Source: Candidatus Heimdallarchaeota archaeon
GTDB taxonomy: Archaea > Asgardarchaeota > Heimdallarchaeia > Hodarchaeales > Hodarchaeaceae
DNA length: 25,941 bases
NCBI GenBank assembly: GCA_048881705.1
Contig: JBHLSH010000057.1
Coordinates: 1-25,941 of the forward strand
Reading direction: 5' to 3'
Shown: positions 4,894-12,314 of the stretch, piece after piece
Position numbering within the stretch: position 1 is the first letter of the stretch
Layout: each line of letters opens with the position of its first letter
The notes under the pieces: model-generated
Databases searched by the model: none
Told to the model about the DNA's origin: nothing
Seen by the model: only the letters and a program-made list of their open reading frames with translations
Position numbers and translations under genes: made by a program

Positions 4894-5172
4894 TTATTTG
4901 ACCCGCTTTATTAAATGCCAGCCATATTTAGTTTTAACAGGAATTTGCGTCATCTCGCCCTTCTTGAGGGCAAACGCTGCCTTTTCAAATTCCCTAACCG
5001 TTTTACCTCGTGTAATGAATCCGATGTTTCCGCCTTTTTTTCCACTGGAATCCAATGAATGTTCACGGGCTAATTGTTCGAAATTTGCGCCCGTATTAAT
5101 CAGCTCGATTAGTTCCTCGGCCTTGGTTCTCCCTTTGACAAGTATGTGTTTTACCTGGATCTTGCTTGACAT
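4894..5172 (-). CDS. Parvulin-type peptidyl-prolyl cis-trans isomerase (single domain)
   Basis: VKHILVK, FEQLAREHSLD, GGNIGF, EFEKAAFAL and PVKTKYGWHLIK are canonical PpiC/parvulin motifs. ATG is preceded by GTGA. Confidence 0.93.
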   Translation of the reverse strand: MSSKIQVKHILVKGRTKAEELIELINTGANFEQLAREHSLDSSGKKGGNIGFITRGKTVREFEKAAFALKKGEMTQIPVKTKYGWHLIKRVK

Positions 5173-5204
5173 TCTGAAATCACGAAATTGAAGCTAGAGT
5201 ACTT

Positions 5205-6065
5205 TTATCTGGGATTTTTCTGTTTAATTATGGTTTTGGGAATTTCCTCTTTGTAGGTAGGAGGTGGCTGGGATTTATCGTCTCTCGACGGAGATTTGCT
5301 TCGAATTGGTTGTGGAGGACGCTTGTTCACTATTTTCTTGGGGATCTTGGTTTTCATTCCGCGAGGCGGCTTTTTCTGTTTTCCAGGAGTTTCACTTTTT
5401 ATATTATGAGGCGGTTGCCGATTTACATTCTTTTTGGATTTGAGAGTAGGTGGCAATCGCCTGATTCGATCTTTTGGGATTGGATTATCTTTGTCCGTGA
5501 CGGGAGGTGGTCTGTTCACCCTATTTTTAGCTTTAGATTTAGCGGAACCAAGTGTTGTTGGATGAATTCTCCTAGAGGCGGTACCTGGAGTCTTTTCACT
5601 GATTTTAGGAGGTAATGGCTGATTCGTCACCCAATTCGTCTCTGAATTTCTCTTTCCCGTTCTAGAGGGAGGTTGTTTGGCTACAATTTCAGTTTTTGGC
5701 GGGAAAACGCTACTAGTGTTAGGTGGTTCTTTAGTTTTAAATTTCTTCTCAGATAACCTTTCATTATTTGGGATAGGGTCTTCAAGAATGATTGGGGGTG
5801 TGACATTAACAAATTCTTCTTTCCTTGATTTTTTTGGTCTAAACCCTTCCCTAGAGGGAATGAAAGGTTCCTCCTTGGGAATATCTGCGATCGAATCTTG
5901 ACGTGGGGGTGGAATTCCGAATCCTTTTAGCTTCGAGGATGAATCAGGGGTTTTATGTTTGATAAATGCTGAGGAATTGGGATCAGGAGTCTTTTCTTGA
6001 ATAAATTCTGAAATGGAGCCCTTGGGGATCTTATCTTTGATTTTCTTTGATTTTCTTAAACCCAT
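5205..6065 (-). CDS. Pro/Lys/Arg-rich, probably intrinsically disordered protein with quasi-repeats
   Basis: 286-aa ORF with ATG and AGGT upstream. It has almost no hydrophobic core and recurrent VN[RK]xPP and [KE]TP motifs. It ends 32 nt before the parvulin ATG. Confidence 0.7.
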   Translation of the reverse strand: MGLRKSKKIKDKIPKGSISEFIQEKTPDPNSSAFIKHKTPDSSSKLKGFGIPPPRQDSIADIPKEEPFIPSREGFRPKKSRKEEFVNVTPPIILEDPIPNNERLSEKKFKTKEPPNTSSVFPPKTEIVAKQPPSRTGKRNSETNWVTNQPLPPKISEKTPGTASRRIHPTTLGSAKSKAKNRVNRPPPVTDKDNPIPKDRIRRLPPTLKSKKNVNRQPPHNIKSETPGKQKKPPRGMKTKIPKKIVNKRPPQPIRSKSPSRDDKSQPPPTYKEEIPKTIIKQKNPR

Positions 6066-6179: not shown

Positions 6180-6800
6180 TTATCTCCCCATCACGAAACC
6201 GACTCCAGAAATCAGGAAAAACAGTCCATATAAAACGCCAATCAGGTCATGTGAGTAGAAGTAACCCACCATTAGAAACAATGTCCCGAAAATAAAGAAT
6301 GTAATTATGGCAGTCCACTCTGCACTGGGACCCCTCTGGGATTGGGCGGTAATGCGTATGAATTGGTATCGTGTGAAACTACGAATTAACAATGCGGAAG
6401 AAACAGCCAAGTAGGGGAATGCCAAAATAGAAGCCAACCCGATCGAGAGGGTTGCCGTTTCATTCCCCGGAAGAACATTGATAACAAACGAAAGCATGGA
6501 ATTTCGTCCGAGGGGGAACATAGGCGCAACAAAGAGCACTAACAAAGGAATGATATTAGCTAGCGAGAGGAAATAAATTTCATTCAGCGTGGCCTTATGA
6601 TCTAGATAAAAAAACATACGTAAAAAGTAGAATATTGTGACTGTCGCGTAAAGGGTTAAAAACAACAAATCCAAGGCAGTTTCGTCTTGTTGTTGTATAA
6701 AAAAGAACACAGTGGCCGAAATCCCTAGTAAAAAAGCAAAGGAGGCGAGTGTGTGACGTGCGGCCATGGCATTATCATCTATTTGGGTATTCTGGATCAA
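6180..6800 (-). CDS. Hypothetical integral membrane protein (~6 TM)
   Basis: About six hydrophobic 18-24-aa segments. Start is either TTG 6800 or the ATG of MAARHTL. An AAGAA-TATATTT element ~30 nt upstream suggests its own promoter. Confidence 0.75.
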   Translation of the reverse strand: MIQNTQIDDNAMAARHTLASFAFLLGISATVFFFIQQQDETALDLLFLTLYATVTIFYFLRMFFYLDHKATLNEIYFLSLANIIPLLVLFVAPMFPLGRNSMLSFVINVLPGNETATLSIGLASILAFPYLAVSSALLIRSFTRYQFIRITAQSQRGPSAEWTAIITFFIFGTLFLMVGYFYSHDLIGVLYGLFFLISGVGFVMGR

Positions 6801-6959: not shown

Positions 6960-8069
6960 TCACCTTCCCTTGTTATATGATTTGATTATCTGGGCATACT
7001 GCCGTCCTGACACTCGAATAGCGGAAGAAGAGGAGAGGTGTTTGTTACATCGAGAGCAGGCTCCAGCTACTGCGATCCATTTCTGGAATTCATTGCCATG
7101 AGCAGGATATCTGCAGTGTGGACAGATCACCACTTCTTTGTGATCTTCTATTGGAAACTCATAACAAAAGATACATCTAAAATCATCTTTGCTAATATTT
7201 CTTCCCATAGGGACATATTTAGACAAATTTGTTCTTGTTACTTTCGCCATACTCTGTTGGGCAGTCTGTACCTGTAATCCGGGAGCCACACGGACATCCC
7301 GACGGATATTTTGGGTTCGAGAAGCAGCACTTCGAGTGTTTGATGATAATCTGGGCTGTGGGGAGCGCCGTTCTGATATTGATCTACGATCTCTTGATGA
7401 TCTCGGCCGTATCGTCCGAGAAGAGGTCTGTCGGGTACGAGGAACCCGTTTAAACGGAACAAGAACAATTTTCATTATATAATGTTGAATAAATAAACCC
7501 AAACTTAAGATACAAAACAGTAAGCCCCCAAATTCAATTAATCCCTGTTCAATCCAATAGAGGAAGAATATGATGACCAAGGAAAAATTATGGACAATCA
7601 CCGCTTCGTTCGGAAATGGACGTCGATTTATAAAAAATTTAGGATACTGGCCAATATAATAACGGCGAAGAAGTATAAGTAGCGCTCCCATTGATGGGAT
7701 CACGATAATTAAACCAAAGAGGTTCCAGAAAATACTTACGCCACCCAAATTTAGAAAACTTAAATCTAACGATATATCGAAAAGAGAAGTTTGGAGCATA
7801 TCATTAATCCCAAAGGAAGCCAAGTGGGCCAAGAGGCTTCCTCCCACCCCTATCAGAGTAGGAATCACAAGGAAGGTCGCAGAAGCTAACGGCGCGTTAT
7901 ATGACCTAAAATAACGCCATTCGTCTACCAGTTTTATCAGGAGAAGACTAACAAAGGTGAGAAAGAAAAATGTTAAAGCGACGTTCTGAGGTTGACCGAT
8001 GACCAGAGAAAGAATGCCGAAGACAAATCCAATGACAAACACAACAATGTAGGTATTCCGTTTGATCAC
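6960..8069 (-). CDS. Multi-pass membrane protein with C-terminal RING-like zinc finger (putative membrane E3 ligase)
   Basis: About 6 TM helices, an Arg/Ser-rich linker, then C-x2-C-x13-C-x2-C-x4-H-x2-E-x3-W-x6-C-x2-C (CIFC...CPHCRYPAHGNEFQKWIAVAGACSRC). It is the last gene of the E1/E2/JAMM run. Confidence 0.8.
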   Translation of the reverse strand: MIKRNTYIVVFVIGFVFGILSLVIGQPQNVALTFFFLTFVSLLLIKLVDEWRYFRSYNAPLASATFLVIPTLIGVGGSLLAHLASFGINDMLQTSLFDISLDLSFLNLGGVSIFWNLFGLIIVIPSMGALLILLRRYYIGQYPKFFINRRPFPNEAVIVHNFSLVIIFFLYWIEQGLIEFGGLLFCILSLGLFIQHYIMKIVLVPFKRVPRTRQTSSRTIRPRSSRDRRSISERRSPQPRLSSNTRSAASRTQNIRRDVRVAPGLQVQTAQQSMAKVTRTNLSKYVPMGRNISKDDFRCIFCYEFPIEDHKEVVICPHCRYPAHGNEFQKWIAVAGACSRCNKHLSSSSAIRVSGRQYAQIIKSYNKGR

Positions 8070-8103
8070 TCGATGTCCACGACCTCAATCATTCTGAACT
8101 CCA

Positions 8104-8982
8104 TTATTCGTGGTCATATTCCAGAAACATCGTTTTACCTTCTGCCAACGGTAACAAGGTTTGGATCATCTGAGGAAGGCTTTCTAAGGGACAGTTCAAA
8201 ACTCGGAAGCTTGGCTCCTCCCACGTCCGTAGGTCCTTCCTTAATCGAAAAATCTTGAATCCATACGAGGAAGAGGAAATTTCGGTCGGATCAATAACCA
8301 AAGCAATGGGAGCCGCCAAATGAGAACCTTGACTGCCAAGCCTTTGATAACGTACCTGGGTTTGAAAATCCGTTTTACTCATGAAAGGGGAATAGGATGG
8401 ATGAGAATGGTACCACCCGAGTATTCGGTGTCCTGCCTTCACTGCATCCTCATAAACTTTCACCATGCTTTGCGGATCTTGGATTTGTGCGTTGACATTT
8501 GTACCGTGTCCAATTGGATAGGCATCCGTAACCACCAAGCATGTTAAAGGAGTGTTTGGATGTTCCACATGTCCCGTAAGAAGGCCAATGACCTCTACCC
8601 ATTCAGAGCGGGGAAGAGAATCATTAGCATACTTTAAAGCATGAAGCGCCAGCTTTAGATATGCCTTAAGGTTAAGTTTCACCCGAGGTGGCTCATGAAG
8701 TTCACCTAAATCAATGTCCAAATCAGTTACAACATCATCTCTCCTGTGTTTTGTATCCGTCCGCGTAGCGGGAGGAGATCGATCTTCATCGGAATGGAGG
8801 GTCATGACGGAAGGTGTTCTATGATGCGATCCCTTAGATAACGCCCGTTCCAGTGATTTATCAGGGGTAGAGACTTTCAATGTGATAGTTGACAATTTGG
8901 GGTCGAACATCAATGATACGTCTCGCAGGAAGAATTCAAAGGTACTAGGACCATGGCCTCTACGTCTTGGTTCTTTATCTAT
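8104..8982 (-). CDS. JAMM/MPN+ metalloprotease, Rpn11/CSN5-like (Ubl isopeptidase)
   Basis: EVIGLLTG (catalytic Glu), GWYHSHPSYSPFMSKTD (H-x-H-x7-S-x2-D) and ALVIDP. Start is uncertain: TTG/ATG at 8913/8910, but the frame is open to 8988 with an ATA at 8982 six nt behind an AGGTGA SD. Confidence 0.92.
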   Translation of the reverse strand: MDKEPRRRGHGPSTFEFFLRDVSLMFDPKLSTITLKVSTPDKSLERALSKGSHHRTPSVMTLHSDEDRSPPATRTDTKHRRDDVVTDLDIDLGELHEPPRVKLNLKAYLKLALHALKYANDSLPRSEWVEVIGLLTGHVEHPNTPLTCLVVTDAYPIGHGTNVNAQIQDPQSMVKVYEDAVKAGHRILGWYHSHPSYSPFMSKTDFQTQVRYQRLGSQGSHLAAPIALVIDPTEISSSSYGFKIFRLRKDLRTWEEPSFRVLNCPLESLPQMIQTLLPLAEGKTMFLEYDHE

Positions 8983-9010
8983 GATTTTTCACCTTTTTCC
9001 GGAACAGTTG

Positions 9011-9538
9011 CTACCATTTCTTGTTGGCATATTTCTTTGTAATCTCTTGGGCTTTTTTCTTAAACTTCTCAGGACTATTCAAATACTCCACAGCGGCCTT
9101 CTTATTGAAAACATCCCTAGGGTTGGTATATGCCGCATCCACATCCAACATTGCAAGAATCGAATGAATCACCGTGGTAATATTTTTGGAAGGGGACCAC
9201 CCATCGGGCCGTCCAACTAGATCGGGGTCAATGAGAGCCAAACAGATATTCCGTTTCCCCTTATATTCATCAGGCTTAGGCCAAAAATTGGGATGCCAGA
9301 TTGGAGTATGTAAACGGACGAATGGGGGAATATAGGGATAATTTCCTCCGAACTTGATTTCGAGCTTGAATTTGCCCTTGCTGTACGGGGTTCCTTTCGG
9401 GCCTTCAAGGAGCAGGGCTAGGTGCTCAACAGATTTTTTTGGTCCCGGGAAAGCTTTCAGCTGTTTTATTGTCCCGCTTTTGTACAGCTTCTTCAGCTGA
9501 TTATAATCTTTGGAGATGCGTTTTATTCGAATTGAAAT
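9011..9538 (-). CDS. E2 ubiquitin-conjugating (UBC) enzyme, ~175 aa, probable ATT start
   Basis: Manual extension of track ORF 9011..9241 gives (M)SIRIKRISKDYNQLKKL...LLEGPKGTPYSKGKFKLEIKFGGNYPYIPPFVRLHTPIWHPNFWPKPDEYKGKRNICLALIDP...GWSPSKNITTVIHSILAML...NPRDVFNKKAA. It carries GPxGTPY, YPxxPP, HPN and the catalytic Cys. AGGAGGT lies 8 nt upstream of ATT at 9538. Confidence 0.93.
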   Translation of the reverse strand: MSIRIKRISKDYNQLKKLYKSGTIKQLKAFPGPKKSVEHLALLLEGPKGTPYSKGKFKLEIKFGGNYPYIPPFVRLHTPIWHPNFWPKPDEYKGKRNICLALIDPDLVGRPDGWSPSKNITTVIHSILAMLDVDAAYTNPRDVFNKKAAVEYLNSPEKFKKKAQEITKKYANKKW

Positions 9539-9551
9539 TGTGGTAAACCTC

Positions 9552-10796
9552 CTATTTGTACTGTAAATTCAAATATATTTCGGGGACATTCTCAAACCCC
9601 GTTACTAATACGGATTCGTGATTTCGAATGTTGAGATCCTCGAGGGATAAATCTAAGGAGATTTCATCTACTTCCGAGGAATCGATTCGAAAAACTGTTG
9701 GAGGAAATTCAGAATCGAAAGAGATTTTCTTCTTGTTAGCAATAAAATCAATGACCTTACGAACAGAATGGCTTGGTTTTGTTCGAATTCGATACAAGGG
9801 AGACCTACGAGGCCCACACAATTCACATTCTTGATTTCGAGGTTTAGGAATTTCGTAAAACTTCCCCGTTAGGCCGTTGTATATTATGTAGTTTAGCTGG
9901 AGCGTTCCAAGTTTCTGCTCATCAGAAGGTGTACGTAAATGATGAAGAATCTTAACCGCTTCTTGAGACTGGATTGAAGCGACAACTGTGTTTATGGTGA
10001 TCACTGTTGGTTCGTGGTTATCGATGATTTGAATGATCTGATCTACTGTGAATGGATTTACACCTGGGAAATGCTCTTGAAGAAGAGAGTTTGCGTAAGC
10101 TTGAACTTCCTTTATTTCGTCTATGTGCAAGATGTCGGCATTTCGACCATGGTCTTGTTCAAATTTTAGTTGCCCCTTCAATATACAATGGGCAGGACGA
10201 CGAGGAACACCCACTAAAGTACAAGCACCTAGTTGATCCTGTTCCCGTTCAGTCAAAGGATCACATTCCAAGCAAGCGTTGTGGAATGGCCATACAACAT
10301 AGATATGGCCATTGTAGGCGGCGGTGCCTGCATCTATCAATGGTTTTCTGAAGTGGATCGCACGACGATTAAGCTCCGATCGCGCCTCAATAGAATCTAA
10401 TCCAGCAACAAACAGATCAGCTTCGCAATAAAGCTGAGGAGCGAGGTCTTGCAGCGCCATATGATATCCTTCAACTTGAATGAAGGGATTTAACTTACGA
10501 AGCTGTTTGGCTGCGTATTCGGCTTTGGAGCTCCCTTCTGGTGCGCCAACAAAGAGAACCTGCCTATTAAGATTCGAGTACTCGATTGTGTCAAGATCCA
10601 CAAGGATGAGCCTGCCTACTCCTACCATCGCGAGGTTTTTCGCGATTTCCACTCCGAGACCTCCGATTCCTGCGAGGAGAACCGTGCTCTGTTTCAATAA
10701 CTCCTGGTTCCAGCCGGGAAGCCGGAATTGCCTATCAAAGCGTTGTTTTTCCTCATCCGAAAGGAGTTCACTTGTGAAATTCGACCGTTGGCTCAT
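9552..10796 (-). CDS. E1 Ubl-activating enzyme, Uba3/Uba2-like, with C-terminal ubiquitin-fold domain
   Basis: RFDRQ, GIGGLG, DLDTIEYSNLNRQ, two Zn pairs (CLEC, CELC), catalytic ACTLVGVPRRPAHC and a ~85-aa C-terminal beta-grasp-like tail. Start is ATG 10796 (MSQRS) or TTG 10814 abutting the Ubl stop. Confidence 0.95.
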   Translation of the reverse strand: MSQRSNFTSELLSDEEKQRFDRQFRLPGWNQELLKQSTVLLAGIGGLGVEIAKNLAMVGVGRLILVDLDTIEYSNLNRQVLFVGAPEGSSKAEYAAKQLRKLNPFIQVEGYHMALQDLAPQLYCEADLFVAGLDSIEARSELNRRAIHFRKPLIDAGTAAYNGHIYVVWPFHNACLECDPLTEREQDQLGACTLVGVPRRPAHCILKGQLKFEQDHGRNADILHIDEIKEVQAYANSLLQEHFPGVNPFTVDQIIQIIDNHEPTVITINTVVASIQSQEAVKILHHLRTPSDEQKLGTLQLNYIIYNGLTGKFYEIPKPRNQECELCGPRRSPLYRIRTKPSHSVRKVIDFIANKKKISFDSEFPPTVFRIDSSEVDEISLDLSLEDLNIRNHESVLVTGFENVPEIYLNLQYK

Positions 10797-10814
10797 CTGT
10801 TGTTCCCTACGCAA

Positions 10815-11213
10815 TTAACCTGCGGTTGATACAGGAATGATCAAACATTCTAGACCGTCTTCGATTTCGTAGTTGCCTAATATGTCATCTGGATCCAGTG
10901 TTCTCCCAGAAATAGATAAATGAAAATCCTGGGGATCAAGACCAAAGATCTGGCCAACTGTTATGGTGAGTTCTCGAACTGGCATTTCTGAATCAACCAT
11001 GAGTTTTTCGAGCTTCTCACCAGGACCAATCGTCGAGCGAAAATACAGATTTACACGGACGCCATGAGGAATTTTGGAGCTGGCTGGAGTTTTAGAATCA
11101 ATTCCAGGAGAAGGAGCTGGTTTAGGAGTTTCGGTATCATCTTCTGCCAAGTCTTCCATATCATCGAAGTCTTCATTTTCTTCTAGGGGTTTACGTTCTT
11201 CATTTTCAGACAT
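10815..11213 (-). CDS. Ubiquitin-like protein A (132 aa; acidic N-terminal tail; ends IPVSTAG)
   Basis: The C-terminal ~80 aa align by eye to ubiquitin (LYFRSTIG...IFGLDPQDFHLSISGRTLD...LGNYEIEDG...LIIPVSTAG). ATG at 11213 has AAAGGTGA upstream. The track's 11279 start lies in the promoter. Confidence 0.9.
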   Translation of the reverse strand: MSENEERKPLEENEDFDDMEDLAEDDTETPKPAPSPGIDSKTPASSKIPHGVRVNLYFRSTIGPGEKLEKLMVDSEMPVRELTITVGQIFGLDPQDFHLSISGRTLDPDDILGNYEIEDGLECLIIPVSTAG

Positions 11214-11274
11214 GTAATCACCTTTCCAACTAAATAAGGTTGGGTACATGTATCTAAGAGAACGGAGAGTGAAG

Positions 11275-11292
11275 TACACTTTAAACCTTCCT
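11275..11292 (-). promoter_or_regulatory. Candidate TATA box for the UblA-E1-E2-JAMM-RING operon
   Basis: The minus strand reads AGGAAGG-TTTAAA ~70 nt upstream of the UblA ATG, downstream of the UblB oligo-T tract. Confidence 0.4.
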
Positions 11293-11364
11293 ATTTAGAA
11301 GTGAATGGTTTTTTGATGGAATCATGGGAGGATATTGGTTTCTCTTGGACGGATCCATAGTGGA

Positions 11365-11385
11365 AGATAAAGAGAAAAAAAACAC
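11365..11385 (-). terminator. Oligo-T archaeal terminator after UblB
   Basis: The minus strand reads GTGTTTTTTTTCTCTTT (T8, forward A-run 11375-11382) ~25 nt after the UblB stop. Confidence 0.55.
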
Positions 11386-11406
11386 AGAATGAGGTCGGTA
11401 AAAACC

Positions 11407-11757
11407 TCATCCGGCTGTACTATGGGGGATTAACAGGATTTCATCCCCGTTATTAATCCCATAATCTCCGATTGGAGCAGACTCATCCAACGTACGTCCC
11501 GCGTGAGACAGGTGGAAGTCATCGGGATTCAACCCGAAAATGTTAGCTAACGTGTCACGAACGTCGCGAACAGGGGTATTTTCACCAACCGAGAGCTTTT
11601 CGGTTCGTTCAGGGCCCACTGTAGATTTAAAAAAAACATTCTTTCGTGGACCAGCACCAGTAGCAGATACAGGTGTTTTAGATTGGGCTGGAGTTTTGGA
11701 TTTAACTTGAGTTTGCCCTTCCTCAAGATCAAAGTCTAAATCTTCAAAGTCACTCAT
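11407..11757 (-). CDS. Ubiquitin-like protein B (116 aa; acidic N-terminal tail; ends IPHSTAG)
   Basis: NVFFKSTVG...IFGLNPDDFHLSHAGRTLDESAPIGDYGINNGDEILLIPHSTAG is a clear ubiquitin beta-grasp pattern and a paralogue of UblA. Confidence 0.92.
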   Translation of the reverse strand: MSDFEDLDFDLEEGQTQVKSKTPAQSKTPVSATGAGPRKNVFFKSTVGPERTEKLSVGENTPVRDVRDTLANIFGLNPDDFHLSHAGRTLDESAPIGDYGINNGDEILLIPHSTAG

Positions 11758-11813
11758 TTTTGTTCACTTTTTTTGCCTTTTTGAGGGTTTCAACTTGTAT
11801 ATGAAACTTGAGT

Positions 11814-11878
11814 AATATACGTAACATACACTTTATAAGCCTTACGAAATATACGTAACGTAAGAAAACTATATATAG
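11814..11878. promoter_or_regulatory. Divergent promoter with repeated operator-like boxes
   Basis: AATATACGTAAC occurs at 11814-11825 and 11848-11859, each with a TACGTA palindromic core. They flank TTTATAA (11832-11838). CTTACG (11841-46) and CGTAAG (11859-64) form an inverted pair, and CTATATATAG (11869-78) is a palindrome. Confidence 0.65.
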
Positions 11879-11933
11879 CTAAAACCGAGGAATGAACCCA
11901 GAATTGGTGACTTCCGCCTGATGTGATGTTCAA

Positions 11934-12314
11934 GTGCCCACAGATGCTCATAACGTCAAAATATCGGATAAGGCTTGGCAGCTACTACGCTGGGCAAAAC
12001 ATGAGCTGGATGTAAAGTCATACAGCGATGTTATTATTACACTGGATGAACAGATCACAAATAGCAGGAAAAAACTAGAGGAATCGCTAAAAACATTCGA
12101 TGTGGAGAGACATCGGATCCAGACTAAAACCCCTGAAGATTCTGGACTGAGAGCCTCTCCTGGTCCAAAAACCATTTTATTGCAAACGGACGCACGGAGA
12201 ATTCTAAATCGATTAAAATTGGAAAGTGACAGAGCAGATTACACATTTTCTGATGCTATCGACTTTCTTGTAGGAATTAGTGGGATCGAGATACCAGAAA
12301 GACTCAAAAAATAA
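11934..12314 (+). CDS. Tandem ribbon-helix-helix-type DNA-binding protein (putative regulator)
   Basis: Two similar units, HNVKISDKAWQLLRWAKHELDVKSYSDVIITL and KTILLQTDARRILNRLKLESDRADYTFSDAIDFL, each match the strand-helix-[YF]SD[VA]I-helix pattern of archaeal RHH/VapB-like proteins. GTG start. Confidence 0.65.
   Translation: MPTDAHNVKISDKAWQLLRWAKHELDVKSYSDVIITLDEQITNSRKKLEESLKTFDVERHRIQTKTPEDSGLRASPGPKTILLQTDARRILNRLKLESDRADYTFSDAIDFLVGISGIEIPERLKK

Follow-up and report, generated by a model that had tools for sequence, protein, structure and literature searches.

Asgard archaea are the closest prokaryotic kin of eukaryotes. The operon of Caldiarchaeum subterraneum encodes a pro-ubiquitin, E1-like and E2-like enzymes, a small RING finger protein and an Rpn11-like protease, and has been reconstituted in vitro (PMC5654768; PMC6043591), while an ESCRT-linked system described in Asgard archaea comprises a Gly-Gly ubiquitin, E1, E2, a RING E3 and UEV-Vps23 (PMC9192718; bioRxiv 10.1101/2023.07.25.550441). 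We analysed a complete contig of 25,941 nucleotides (JBHLSH010000057.1; hereafter the window) from a Candidatus Heimdallarchaeota archaeon with a Hodarchaeales-type genome, for which a preliminary description had proposed a ubiquitin-like (Ubl) cascade of six minus-strand genes at positions 6960-11757. All six genes, encoding two Ubls, E1, E2, a JAMM protease and a membrane finger protein, were found at these coordinates in the same orientation (Table 1), and the module extends further, with two additional genes on its left and a divergent gene on its right. The active-site motifs had been described as intact, and the catalytic motifs and domains of the module are indeed intact and invariant in about 30 orthologues. 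We put the probability at roughly three in four that the locus encodes a self-contained Ubl conjugation and deconjugation system next to two Gly-Gly ubiquitin systems. The earlier interpretation is partly supported; no description of an Ala-Gly Ubl membrane operon was found in the searchable literature.

Table 1. Features of the Ala-Gly Ubl locus, in order of position in the window
Feature	Position	Strand	Remarks
K/P-rich low-complexity protein	5205..6065	-	four I-x-x-K-(T/S)-P motifs
RING-less paralogue of membrane domain	6180..6767	-	195 aa from ATG 6767; hhalign
Six-helix membrane protein with C-terminal variant RING finger	6960..8069	-	GTG start; AF2 mean pLDDT 76
JAMM/MPN+ metalloprotease, Rpn11/CSN5 type	8104..8985	-	JAB 9e-14; start uncertain
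E2 conjugating enzyme	9011..9538	-	175 aa from ATT 9538-9536; UQ_con 1.7e-26
E1 activating enzyme	9552..10796	-	414 aa from ATG 10796; ThiF 6e-53
Ubl2	10815..11213	-	132 aa from ATG 11213; longer acidic tail, I-D-S-K-T-P, end IPVSTAG
T8 run, candidate archaeal oligo-T terminator/attenuator	11375..11382	-	25 nt after Ubl1 stop
Ubl1	11407..11757	-	116 aa; acidic disordered tail, V-K-S-K-T-P, beta-grasp, end IPHSTAG without extension; PF00240 E 2.8e-7
Divergent promoter/operator region, putative	11758..11933	.	sequence read directly
VapB/ribbon-helix-helix-like putative regulator gene	11934..12314	+	PF02697 E 1.3e-5, 26.4 bits vs cut-off 27.9

As had been noted, both modifiers end in Ala-Gly. In the AF2 model of Ubl1 the beta-grasp domain (residues 38-111) is preceded by a disordered tail, which contains the nearly invariant K21-T22-P23 of the Ubl tails (11697-11689). 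Ubl1 is 82-99% identical within the genus; Ubl2 is 48% identical to Ubl1 and on its own matches PF00240 weakly (0.022). The whole family, and not just the window, has the Ala-Gly end and the N-terminal tails: S-x-A-G is present in all Ubl homologues read from the loci, and likewise in 35/35 family members among the library representatives, with extensions of 0-6 residues. In the relatives Ala-Gly is often continued by 1-7 extra residues or by a further Ubl unit, and three library representatives run straight into the next unit (P0001 with three units, P0002 with two, and the fragment P0020). Ala-Gly, being kept and often followed by extra residues or another Ubl, thus seems to be the reactive end left after processing. 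The tails had also been called SUMO-like, and while they occur family-wide, the likeness to SUMO is an analogy only, as profile and fold place the Ubl in the ubiquitin family: PF00240 was matched by 31/31 family members, the Rad60-SLD match is weaker, and the closest solved relative is the Caldiarchaeum ubiquitin 6fno_D (2.6e-8).

The E1 aligns with UBA3 over residues 37-368, and among solved structures it is closest to UBA1 (2e-35) and UBA3 (3e-33, full length). The GxGGLG and NLNRQ motifs, two CxxC pairs and the cysteine of A-C-T are invariant, and this last cysteine (10223-10221, in A-C-T-L-x3-P) is the candidate catalytic residue. In the E2, which matches classical UBCs, HPN and Cys99 (9244-9242) are invariant and separated by a conserved FWPKPxEYxGxRN insert, while E107, H169, H171, S179 and D182 are invariant in the intact E...HxH...S..D motif of the JAMM protease.

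With regard to the non-AUG starts reported previously, these were borne out for E2 (ATT) and the membrane finger protein (GTG here, TTG in orthologues) and are probable for JAMM, whereas comparison with orthologues assigns ATG to E1 and Ubl2 despite longer open frames (9552-10814 and 10815-11279, respectively). The Ubl2 ATG, with GGTGA upstream, fits the conserved MSENE(D/E)F start of its orthologues. The open frame of E2 (9011-9568) contains no ATG, GTG or TTG upstream of HPN; its ATT is preceded by AGGAGGT overlapping the E1 stop codon and recurs in a second genome (G070). At the aligned position, 13 orthologues have ATG and one has TTG. For JAMM the conserved N-terminal FE(L/F)(L/F)LRD precedes the first canonical start (TTG 8913 or ATG 8910), and translation probably begins at a non-AUG codon, ATC 8985 or ATA 8982 (8985-8980). 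The use of ATT, ATC or ATA instead of ATG need not be a means of regulated weak initiation, and could also reflect expression that is lowered or lost in this lineage.

Upstream of Ubl1, the putative divergent promoter/operator contains TTATAAA at 11838-11832, about 75 nt from the Ubl1 ATG, two copies of TTACGTAT (11858-11851 and 11824-11817) and the inverted arms CTTACG/CGTAAG (11864-11859 and 11846-11841). The gene on its other side, from its profile match a putative regulator, keeps its divergent position throughout the genus, and Lokiarchaeia have an ArsR-type wHTH gene instead. The T8 run downstream of Ubl1 is a possible archaeal oligo-T terminator or attenuator.

The only ligase-like gene of the locus encodes an integral membrane protein, in agreement with the membrane association suggested earlier. 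Its six membrane helices were modelled with high confidence, the inner loops are rich in Arg/Lys, and a disordered Arg/Ser-rich linker (residues 207-273) leads to the finger (residues 290-369; 7202-6963). In the predicted structure the finger has a RING/U-box fold (Z 9.8 to 3lrq; rmsd 1.4 A to the Prp19 U-box), with C299, C302, C316, C319, H324, E327, W331, C338 and C341 invariant; one canonical zinc ligand is absent, as Glu327 occupies the position where RING ligand 6 is Cys. None of the Pfam RING models matched above cut-off, the nearest being prokaryotic RING finger family 1 (Prok-RING_1, PF14446; E 0.043, 14.2 vs 29.1 bits). The missing ligand and the lack of a Pfam RING match above cut-off suggest that the finger may bind a single zinc, or may be a U-box-like or non-catalytic module. 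In a protein atlas the Asgard finger proteins cluster by themselves as 'hypothetical proteins', and the feature neighbours are bacterial clusters with PF14446 in 13-24% of members (score 0.80, a lead only). Complex prediction docks the finger on the E2 of the operon with a score of 0.72, versus 0.01 for the best control, using a mark reached by 58/80 solved complexes and 2/110 mismatched pairs. The docking runs share at least 97% of contacts with a partner pLDDT of at least 87, and the predicted interface is classical (E2 helix 1, L4 and L7 versus finger residues 300-304, W331 and 339-340), although this pass may reflect likeness instead of binding, because E2-RING complexes have already been solved. 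A fold search with the membrane domain gave no clear match, the best being an HRD1-complex chain (9uav_B, Z 7.9 over 114 residues), a value too low to be meaningful for helical bundles. The adjacent RING-less protein is its paralogue (hhalign of the two alignments: probability 96.6%, E 5.9e-10, 178 columns) and is syntenic within the genus and in two further families; paralogy and synteny suggest that the two membrane proteins probably pair.

The Lys-Thr-Pro motif of the Ubl tails recurs in the K/P-rich protein at residues 22-27, 35-40, 155-160 and 254-259 (P = 2e-5 for four copies in a shuffle test), which is the only one of the 15,330 ORFs of the genome with at least three copies, and the motif is kept in its orthologues. 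A protein with at least three copies adjoins the operon in 21/80 loci; in Lokiarchaeia these are coiled-coil proteins unrelated to the K/P-rich protein. We regard hydrophobic-x-x-Lys-Thr/Ser-Pro as a candidate acceptor site, but docking, phosphorylation (at Thr-Pro) or membrane binding would explain the motif equally well.

We also searched for relatives and synteny across Asgard genomes. Ubl relatives were found in 194/400 genomes, the remaining half or so, many of them incomplete, giving no match to the Ubl query. Six GTDB families retain the order Ubl-E1-E2-JAMM-membrane RING, which holds from Hodarchaeales to the cultured Lokiarchaeum ossiferum. Relatives of the E2 were found at 186 loci, and the best 80 of these 186 are all in records titled as Asgard or uncultured/unnamed archaea, including L. 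ossiferum. The window genome itself contains two Gly-Gly systems. Contig C15 encodes an ESCRT-linked ubiquitin ending in TTGG+VDD along with a dedicated E1, E2 and UEV, and contig C72 a Ubl ending in IKGG, likewise with a dedicated E1 and E2. The enzymes of these two systems are only 26-39% identical to those of the locus, which argues, in line with the dedicated cascade proposed earlier, that the Ala-Gly operon is a separate, third cascade of this genome.

This divergence also bears on the strongest alternative, that the locus is another copy of the ordinary Caldiarchaeum/Asgard-type ubiquitin operon, in which Ala-Gly is a neutral variant of Gly-Gly, the helices merely anchor a standard small RING, and role and targets do not differ from the Gly-Gly systems. 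The locus does have the same gene set, and Caldiarchaeum proteins are the closest solved relatives of both the Ubl and the JAMM protease (6fjv, 1.6e-12). We nevertheless consider this unlikely: Ala-Gly, tail motif and membrane domain are kept across six families, which points to selection rather than drift, two Gly-Gly systems coexist with it, and the Ala-Gly system has extra conserved partners in the RING-less twin and the motif protein.

That the locus represents an archaeal homologue or precursor of the UFM1 pathway of eukaryotes is far less probable. UFM1 likewise ends in a single Gly after a non-Gly residue, is made with a short propeptide at its C-terminus and functions at a membrane; its end (...IIPRDRVG-SC) has the same Ile-Pro-x3-(Val/Ala)-Gly spacing as the Asgard Ubl, which combines a single terminal Gly after Ala and short extensions with a membrane-bound ligase. 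However, Pfam Ufm1 (PF03671) was matched by 0/31 family members at E values up to 1, a search of the genome with this profile gave nothing credible, and no UFM1 structure was among the 50 best fold matches of the Ubl; profile comparison already indicates a place with ubiquitin, NEDD8 and the Caldiarchaeum ubiquitin rather than with UFM1. Similarly, the E1 is far closer to UBA1 and UBA3 than to UBA5 (3.5e-13), the E2 has the HPN motif, which UFC1 is not known to have, and the protease is a JAMM enzyme, whereas the UFM1 proteases are UFSP-type cysteine proteases. Ufm1 homologues were reported in nine Asgard clades in a 2026 paper, in which candidates had to be without a good sequence match to eukaryotic proteins (PMC12962969), unlike the Ala-Gly Ubl family, which has such a match.

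Still less likely is an anti-virus defence or mobile-element system comparable to the bacterial Bil, Bub or CBASS-Cap2 operons. Bacterial Ubl-E1-E2-JAB operons do function in defence, and the E1 matches the PADLOC 'E1-E2' (Cap2) models (up to 4e-19), but only in the shared adenylation domain, and the PADLOC search gave no match for the Ubl, E2, RING or partner proteins. The locus is surrounded by housekeeping genes, has the same content and order throughout the genus and across classes, unlike patchy defence islands, and its E1 and E2 are separate, eukaryote-like proteins. The least plausible reading, that the Ubls are mainly sulfur carriers (SAMP, Urm1, MoaD, ThiS type) with conjugation secondary, can draw on MoeB/ThiF matches of the E1 adenylation domain, all far under cut-off, and a weak match of JAMM to the haloarchaeal desampylase (1.5e-8, 34.6 bits vs cut-off 130), but is opposed by the dedicated E2, the RING finger, the UBA3-like catalytic-Cys region, the absence of a rhodanese domain from E1 in the domain profile search, the ubiquitin-family modifier (ThiS/MoaD matched by 2/31 members, E 0.14) and the tandem poly-Ubl genes, which suit a protein modifier.

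We therefore return to a self-contained conjugation system, for which the following mechanism can be proposed from the conserved motifs and models. The paralogous Ubl1 and Ubl2, made in mature form in the window genome, would bear the reactive C-terminal Ala-Gly, while the extended or head-to-tail Ubls of relatives would be cut after Ala-Gly, most likely by the JAMM protease of the operon. The terminal Gly would be adenylated by the UBA3-like E1, form a thioester on the A-C-T cysteine and be handed to Cys99 of the dedicated UBC-type E2. The charged E2 would dock on the cytoplasmic variant RING finger of the six-helix protein, which is probably paired with its RING-less paralogue, and the Ubl would thereby be attached on the cytoplasmic side of the cell membrane. 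Attachment would probably favour the lysine of hydrophobic-x-x-Lys-Thr/Ser-Pro; the presence of this motif in the flexible tail of the Ubl would permit chains, and the motif-rich protein of the neighbouring gene would act as an in-built substrate or scaffold. JAMM would also reverse conjugation, and the weak starts (E2 ATT, ligase GTG/TTG, perhaps JAMM) together with the T-run after Ubl1 would hold the enzymes scarce relative to the modifier.

Finally, we compared the Asgard locus with known systems. It shares with Caldiarchaeum a one-operon cascade of the same five functions and, in its relatives, a precursor with a short C-terminal extension, but differs in the Ala-Gly instead of Gly-Gly end, the conserved tail of about 35 residues with the Lys-Thr-Pro motif, the frequent presence of two or more modifiers or tandem poly-Ubl genes, the six-helix membrane ligase with Glu for one zinc ligand, and the added RING-less paralogue and motif-repeat neighbour. 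The ESCRT-linked system has the same phylum and enzyme classes, but is a different, paralogous set, with a Gly-Gly end and propeptide, a soluble RING and ESCRT neighbours, whereas the Ala-Gly locus has membrane-embedded ligase genes. As with the eukaryotic polytopic RING ligases that serve ERAD and related pathways (Hrd1, Doa10/MARCH6 and Dsc/Tul1 type), a polytopic membrane domain is followed by a cytoplasmic RING for a UBC-type E2, possibly with a membrane partner subunit, but this likeness is in layout without detected homology, and the locus has no sign of retrotranslocation or degradation. Like eukaryotic polyubiquitin genes, P0001 and P0002 encode head-to-tail units to be cut after the terminal Gly, although each Asgard unit has its own acidic tail, the junction being Ala-Gly followed by an acidic residue, and the window has two separate genes for mature-form Ubls. 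In SUMO, the psi-K-x-E consensus is read by Ubc9, and SUMO2/3 and Smt3 form chains via a lysine of their flexible N-terminal tail. The Asgard Ubl differs in its ubiquitin-family membership, its hydrophobic-x-x-K-T/S-P motif with a putative acceptor role and its single-chain E1, but by analogy its flexible N-terminal tail also carries a short lysine motif found on candidate targets, and the shared logic would be consensus-site tagging with tail-linked chains.

The window covers the entire contig C57, which belongs to a 3.96-Mb genome bin of 155 contigs, and the six genes named in the preliminary description (two ubiquitin-like modifiers, Ubl1 and Ubl2, an E1, an E2, a JAMM protease and a membrane finger protein) were all found on its minus strand, from 11757 to 6960. 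While this span does contain the six genes, its left border truncates the module, since the block is longer within the genus and strictly kept there, in the order divergent VapB-like gene, Ubl1, Ubl2, E1, E2, JAMM, membrane finger protein, a 195-residue membrane protein and a Lys/Pro-rich protein. The search of Asgard genomes for the modifier and its synteny, which had been suggested as a check, gave relatives of Ubl1 in 194 of 400 genomes of the phylum (45–60% identity over nearly the whole length), with three to six Ubl copies often found per genome, and the gene order Ubl(s)-E1-E2-JAMM-membrane finger is shared by loci of six GTDB families. A pattern scan covering one genome per prokaryotic species gave 186 loci with relatives of the E2, and the best 80 of these 186 are all in records titled as Asgard or as uncultured or unnamed archaea (Heimdall-, Hod-, Prometh-/Loki-, Hermod-, Thor-, Odin- and Borr- being among the titles). 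The nearest public E2 is 98% identical and comes from a record labelled Thorarchaeota TM1M.79, the cultured Lokiarchaeum ossiferum has a related E2 locus at about 3.53 Mb of CP104013.1, and the Hodarchaeales, to which the genus of this genome belongs, are an order with cultured strains (bioRxiv 10.1101/2025.02.26.640444). None of the NCBIfam models scored above cut-off with the nine module proteins. The module is a real, conserved feature. Just past the divergent regulator gene there are two adjacent genes for giant paralogous proteins, each combining several WD40 beta-propellers and Asp-rich calcium-binding-like repeats with a hydrophobic segment and a helical C-terminal region.

Features of the module, of the Gly-Gly systems on two other contigs of the same genome (C15 and C72), and of Lokiarchaeial loci (L046, L059 and L138); C57 is the contig under study
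Feature	Contig or locus	Position	Strand	Remarks
Lys/Pro-rich protein	C57	5205-6065	-	
RING-less membrane paralogue	C57	6180-6767		
Membrane finger protein	C57	6960-8069	-	369 aa, six predicted membrane helices, C-terminal finger
E2 open frame	C57	9011-9568	-	
Ubl2	C57		-	PF00240 weak alone (0.022); 48% identity with Ubl1
Ubl1	C57	11407-11757	-	PF00240 2.8e-7
Candidate operator	C57	11816-11880		
Divergent VapB-like gene	C57	11934-12314	+	
First giant paralogue	C57	12479-16165	+	1228 aa
Second giant paralogue	C57	16407-20117	+	1236 aa
ESCRT-linked locus	C15	3594-24244		Loci L001, L004, L005
UEV-like protein	C15	7416-8159		
E1	C15	10512-11543		
Ubiquitin	C15	11641-11883		Ends TTGG-VDD
E2	C15	23744-24244		
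Second Gly-Gly system	C72	12672-20392		Loci L003, L007
E1	C72	15021-16250		
Ubl	C72	16347-16652		Ends IKGG
E2	C72	19847-20392		
Membrane-helix Ubl protein	L046	10353-11198	+	
Membrane-helix Ubl protein	L059	10383-11186	+	
Membrane-helix Ubl protein	L138	2466-3254	-	

The modifier groups with ubiquitin in both profile and fold: PF00240 was matched by 31/31 aligned family members (best 1.2e-10), and the AF2 model has a beta-grasp fold with the Caldiarchaeum ubiquitin 6fno_D as its top solved match (E 2.6e-8, TM 0.81 by target, rmsd 1.6 Å); ISG15, NEDD8, ubiquitin and SUMO rank behind it. Both modifiers end in Ala-Gly, as had been read in the window, and Ser-x-Ala-Gly is likewise present in all homologues read; I-P-x-S-T-A-G is terminal or contained in every relative from the fetched loci, about half of the relatives ending directly at the Gly and the rest extending by 1–7 residues (WN, AI, RGY, SSNRS, CYIERI). 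When 1.84 billion cluster representatives were searched, I-P-x-S-x-A-G was present in 35 of the best 150 profile matches, and in these 35/35 the Ala-Gly is invariant and followed by 0–6 further residues; the total of 1670 representative matches, the top of which is crowded by polyubiquitin-like repeat proteins, does not equal family size, and only the 35 with this motif were used. The representatives include head-to-tail poly-Ubls (P0001 with three units, P0002 with two, and P0020 as a fragment), in which an acidic tail and a Lys-Thr-Pro motif recur in every unit, while at the junctions of P0001 and P0002 the STAG runs straight into the acidic start of the following unit. Ubiquitin precursors are processed by cleavage after the last Gly, and extensions and poly-Ubl junctions following Ala-Gly are hallmarks of a modifier cleaved after its final Gly; judged from these sequences, Ala-Gly would be the reactive end of a large Ubl family. 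Both Ubls in the window stop directly after the Gly, so that processing would be unnecessary here. The last 28 residues of Ubl1 contain neither Arg nor Lys, and its conjugates would thus escape the usual searches for Lys-GlyGly remnants. In several representatives, which are larger proteins of 241–570 aa, the C-terminal part is a Ubl with an Ala-Gly end. Separately, Lokiarchaeial clusters encode a protein of about 265 aa that combines two membrane helices at its N-terminus with a Ubl domain of the Ala-Gly family at its C-terminus; it lacks STAG, terminates in ...LIPSKKK or ...LIPIRK, and looks like a membrane-anchored, non-conjugatable Ubl domain.

The active-site motifs of E1, E2 and JAMM had been described as intact, and alignments of approximately 30 orthologues per enzyme bear this out, as the motifs are invariant in all three. 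The E1 matches ThiF at 6e-53, with the UBA3 alignment covering residues 37–368, and has GxGGLG, NLNRQ, D140 (the Asp of the GLDS motif) and two CxxC pairs as invariants; its candidate catalytic cysteine is the invariant C198 (420-aa numbering) in A-C-T-L-x3-P, the spacing of which we take to be that of the catalytic Cys-Thr motif in UBA1, UBA3 and SAE2. It therefore has the appearance of an E1 with both an adenylation domain and a putative catalytic cysteine, and its closest solved relatives by sequence are UBA1 (2.3e-35) and UBA3 (2.6e-33), with UBA5 well behind (3.5e-13). The E2 is missing from the ORF list because none of ATG, GTG and TTG occurs in its open frame ahead of the HPN, but the stop-to-stop translation matches UQ_con at 1.7e-26; H82-P83-N84 and C99 are invariant with a conserved insert FWPKPxEYxGxRN between them, and the best solved matches are ordinary UBCs (UBE2L3, UBE2T and UBE2K), none of which is preferred. 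The JAMM protein matches JAB at 9e-14 and has the invariant metal-site residues E107, H169, H171, S179 and D182, its best solved relative being the Caldiarchaeum Rpn11-like protein (1.6e-12), ahead of CSN5 and Rpn11.

Non-AUG starts had also been proposed for the module, and this holds for the E2 (ATT), the candidate ligase (GTG) and probably JAMM (ATC/ATA), but not for E1 and Ubl2, which start at ATGs (10796 and 11213, respectively) inside their longest ORFs. The GTG of the ligase (8069) is a TTG in other members of the genus. The E2 ATT (9538–9536) aligns codon for codon with an ATG in 13 orthologues and a TTG in one (M/L-S-I-R-I-K-R-I), and is preceded at 8 nt by an AGGAGGT overlapping the stop codon of E1; the sister genome G070, the proteins of which differ by 1–13%, has the identical ATT, which is thus not a sequencing slip. 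For JAMM, the first canonical start comes only after FE(L/F)(L/F)LRD, a motif conserved at the N-terminus, and the ATC/ATA at 8985–8980, after AAAGGTGA, corresponds to the ATG of the orthologues; the two genomes have only three differences upstream of that canonical start (two synonymous, one not), which is too few for dN/dS. The non-canonical starts of both genes are common to the two genomes, and a change from ATG to ATH seems to have taken place in this lineage in both of these adjacent genes, an unusual lineage-specific loss of canonical starts, which could represent either non-canonical initiation or silencing. Gene callers limited to ATG, GTG and TTG will miss or truncate the ATT-initiated E2 and probably JAMM. 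With regard to other expression signals, a run of eight T residues follows Ubl1, and the candidate operator between Ubl1 and the VapB-like gene contains repeated TTACGTAT palindromes, a CTTACG/CGTAAG inverted repeat and two TATA-like boxes. Together, starts and signals suggest a plentiful modifier, scarce enzymes and a local regulator.

The description of the last of the six proteins as a polytopic membrane RING agrees with the AF2 model, which has six predicted helices and a C-terminal RING/U-box fold. Pfam gave no match over the whole 369 residues, while the last 146 residues gave a weak match to Prok-RING_1 (E 0.043). In the model (mean pLDDT 76, 22-sequence alignment), the six helices, at pLDDT 83–95 and with two short beta hairpins in the outward loops, are followed by a disordered Arg/Ser-rich linker (207–273) and the folded C-terminal domain. 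The Arg/Lys-rich segments (N-terminus, 53–63, 140–154 and the linker) are all on one side, so that by the positive-inside rule the finger should face the cytoplasm. Structural neighbours of the finger domain were RING/U-box ligase domains only: 3lrq (Z 9.8), Ring1b (8.3), CHIP (8.1), Rad18 (7.9) and the Prp19 U-box (7.6, rmsd 1.4 Å, 56 residues). Invariant in the alignment are C299, C302, C316, C319, H324, E327, W331, C338 and C341, and instead of the eight cross-brace Cys/His zinc ligands of a canonical RING (C3HC4, RING-H2 or RINGv) seven are kept, with the invariant Glu327 at the position of ligand 6, four residues ahead of the conserved Trp331; by this C4-H-x2-?-C2 spacing the finger is a predicted RING variant. 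A conserved Trp marks the E2-binding helix of RING-H2 domains.

Prediction of a complex between the E2 and the finger (278–369) passed with a score of 0.72, which was attained by 58 of 80 solved complexes and 2 of 110 mismatched pairs, vs 0.01 for the best of three controls, and at least 97% of contacts agree between docking runs, with a partner pLDDT of at least 87. The predicted interface, formed by helix 1 and loop residues 68–69 and 108–119 of the E2 and by finger residues 300–304, 327–331 and 337–342, is the textbook E2-RING arrangement; since many E2-RING complexes have already been solved, the pass shows likeness and compatibility, not binding. The domain thus pairs a RING/U-box fold with a predicted E2-binding surface. 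For the membrane part, Foldseek found no match and an Atlas shape search gave Asgard clusters only, while VIA-align of model residues 1–141 (the first four helices) with 9uav_B, a chain of the human HRD1-SEL1L-XTP3B complex, gave a Z of 7.9 (rmsd 3.8 Å, 114 aligned), which is in the chance range for helical bundles. The RING-less neighbour is paralogous to the membrane domain but has neither linker nor finger (hhalign 96.6%, E 5.9e-10, 178 columns), and it is a natural guess that the two form a heteromeric complex.

The Ubl tails consist of an acidic stretch followed by (I/V)-x-S-K-T-P, often twice, in which Lys21, Thr22 and Pro23 are nearly invariant. Four I-x-x-K-(T/S)-P motifs (IQEKTP, IKHKTP, ISEKTP and IRSKSP) are present in the Lys/Pro-rich protein, whereas shuffling of its residues gave four or more in 2 of 100,000 trials; it is the only one of 15,330 genome frames of at least 60 residues to have at least three (one other has two), and its orthologues are barely alignable (28–33% identity) yet retain the motif. 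A neighbouring frame with at least three copies was present in 21 of the 80 loci fetched around the E2, and in the Lokiarchaeia these neighbours are coiled-coil proteins of 300–430 residues, unrelated to the Lys/Pro-rich protein, with the motifs clustered at both ends. The occurrence of one motif in the modifier tail and in differing neighbours across classes argues for a functional link. This may be a docking or phosphorylation site, although an acceptor site, as with the SUMO consensus and tail lysine, is the simplest reading because the lysine is invariant; we consider it only a little short of an even chance that the lysine of hydrophobic-x-x-Lys-Thr/Ser-Pro would be an acceptor site. A strong AT skew (-0.317, positions 5001–6000) lies over the Lys/Pro-rich gene, and is attributed to A-rich Lys and Pro codons on the minus strand.

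Across the genome there are four UBC-like matches and further Ubl matches, including the two Gly-Gly systems, of which that on C15 has Vps4/ESCRT-III-like and coiled-coil ESCRT-like genes as neighbours, while zinc-ribbon proteins adjoin the C72 genes. The C57 enzymes are 26–39% identical to the C15 and C72 enzymes over the aligned parts, which upholds the earlier proposal of a dedicated pathway, and alignment of the Ubls is confined to the last 34–51 residues. Given the presence of the Gly-Gly sets in the same genome and this level of identity, the Ala-Gly system stands beside them and not as their replacement. The mechanism proposed for it is plausible at every step.

Read jointly, these data could describe a third pathway with an Ala-Gly mark and its own SUMO-like hydrophobic-x-x-Lys-Thr-Pro "attach here" code, in which a dedicated E2 would read the code at a membrane-embedded heterodimeric RING ligase, and tail-linked chains would be built on a scaffold protein located at the cell membrane. 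We think this extended reading rather unlikely, with a probability of about 0.3. If true, both consensus-site tagging and membrane-bound RING ligases would predate eukaryotes. Parallel modifiers, membrane-bound ligases, consensus-site tagging and polyprotein precursors are forms of ubiquitin diversification that are usually assigned to eukaryotes; here the four features, with consensus-site tagging as a candidate, come together in one conserved operon of their closest prokaryotic relatives, alongside the Gly-Gly systems known before. The question is testable, as the operon is compact, its proteins are small except for the two membrane proteins, and there is a relative in the cultured L. ossiferum.

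The tails had been called SUMO-like. This is apt insofar as the tail has a lysine motif, but the modifier is not of the SUMO family, as Rad60-SLD matches 25 of 31 members more weakly than the ubiquitin profile (best 1.6e-5 vs 1.2e-10), and SUMO has a Gly-Gly end and a psi-K-x-E consensus where Ala-Gly and hydrophobic-x-x-K-T/S-P are found here. A relationship with UFM1 was prompted by the single Gly, the propeptide, the membrane link and a 2026 report of Asgard homologues, and was rejected on Pfam, fold ranking and enzyme types: PF03671 (Ufm1) matched 0 of 31 family members at E up to 1 (genome-wide best E 0.475, with an internal stop), UFM1 was absent from the top 50 fold matches, and in place of a UBA5-type E1 and a UFC1-type E2 there are a UBA1/UBA3-like E1 and an E2 with HPN. 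That report describes Ufm1 homologues from nine Asgard clades (PMC12962969), but the selection rules of that paper left out proteins with good sequence matches to eukaryotic families, and it therefore most likely concerns another family. A role in defence (CBASS Cap2/Cap3 or Bil) was likewise rejected, as PADLOC matched only the E1 adenylation region (at most 4e-19) and weak JAB models, with no match for Ubl, E2, finger or partner proteins. A sulfur-carrier role was considered and rejected.

The searchable, largely non-subscription literature gave neither an Ala-Gly Ubl nor an operon with a membrane RING nor the Lys-Thr-Pro motif. The nearest described systems are the Caldiarchaeum operon and its Asgard Gly-Gly relatives (PMC5654768, PMC6043591, PMC9192718, bioRxiv 10.1101/2023.07.25.550441), with which the module shares its gene classes, i.e. 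a ubiquitin-family modifier, an E1, an HPN/Cys E2 and an Rpn11-like JAMM protease. It departs from them in two features that define this family, since the modifiers end in Ser-x-Ala-Gly and not in Gly-Gly, and in place of a small soluble RING there is a finger that forms the C-terminal end of a 369-aa protein with six predicted membrane helices.
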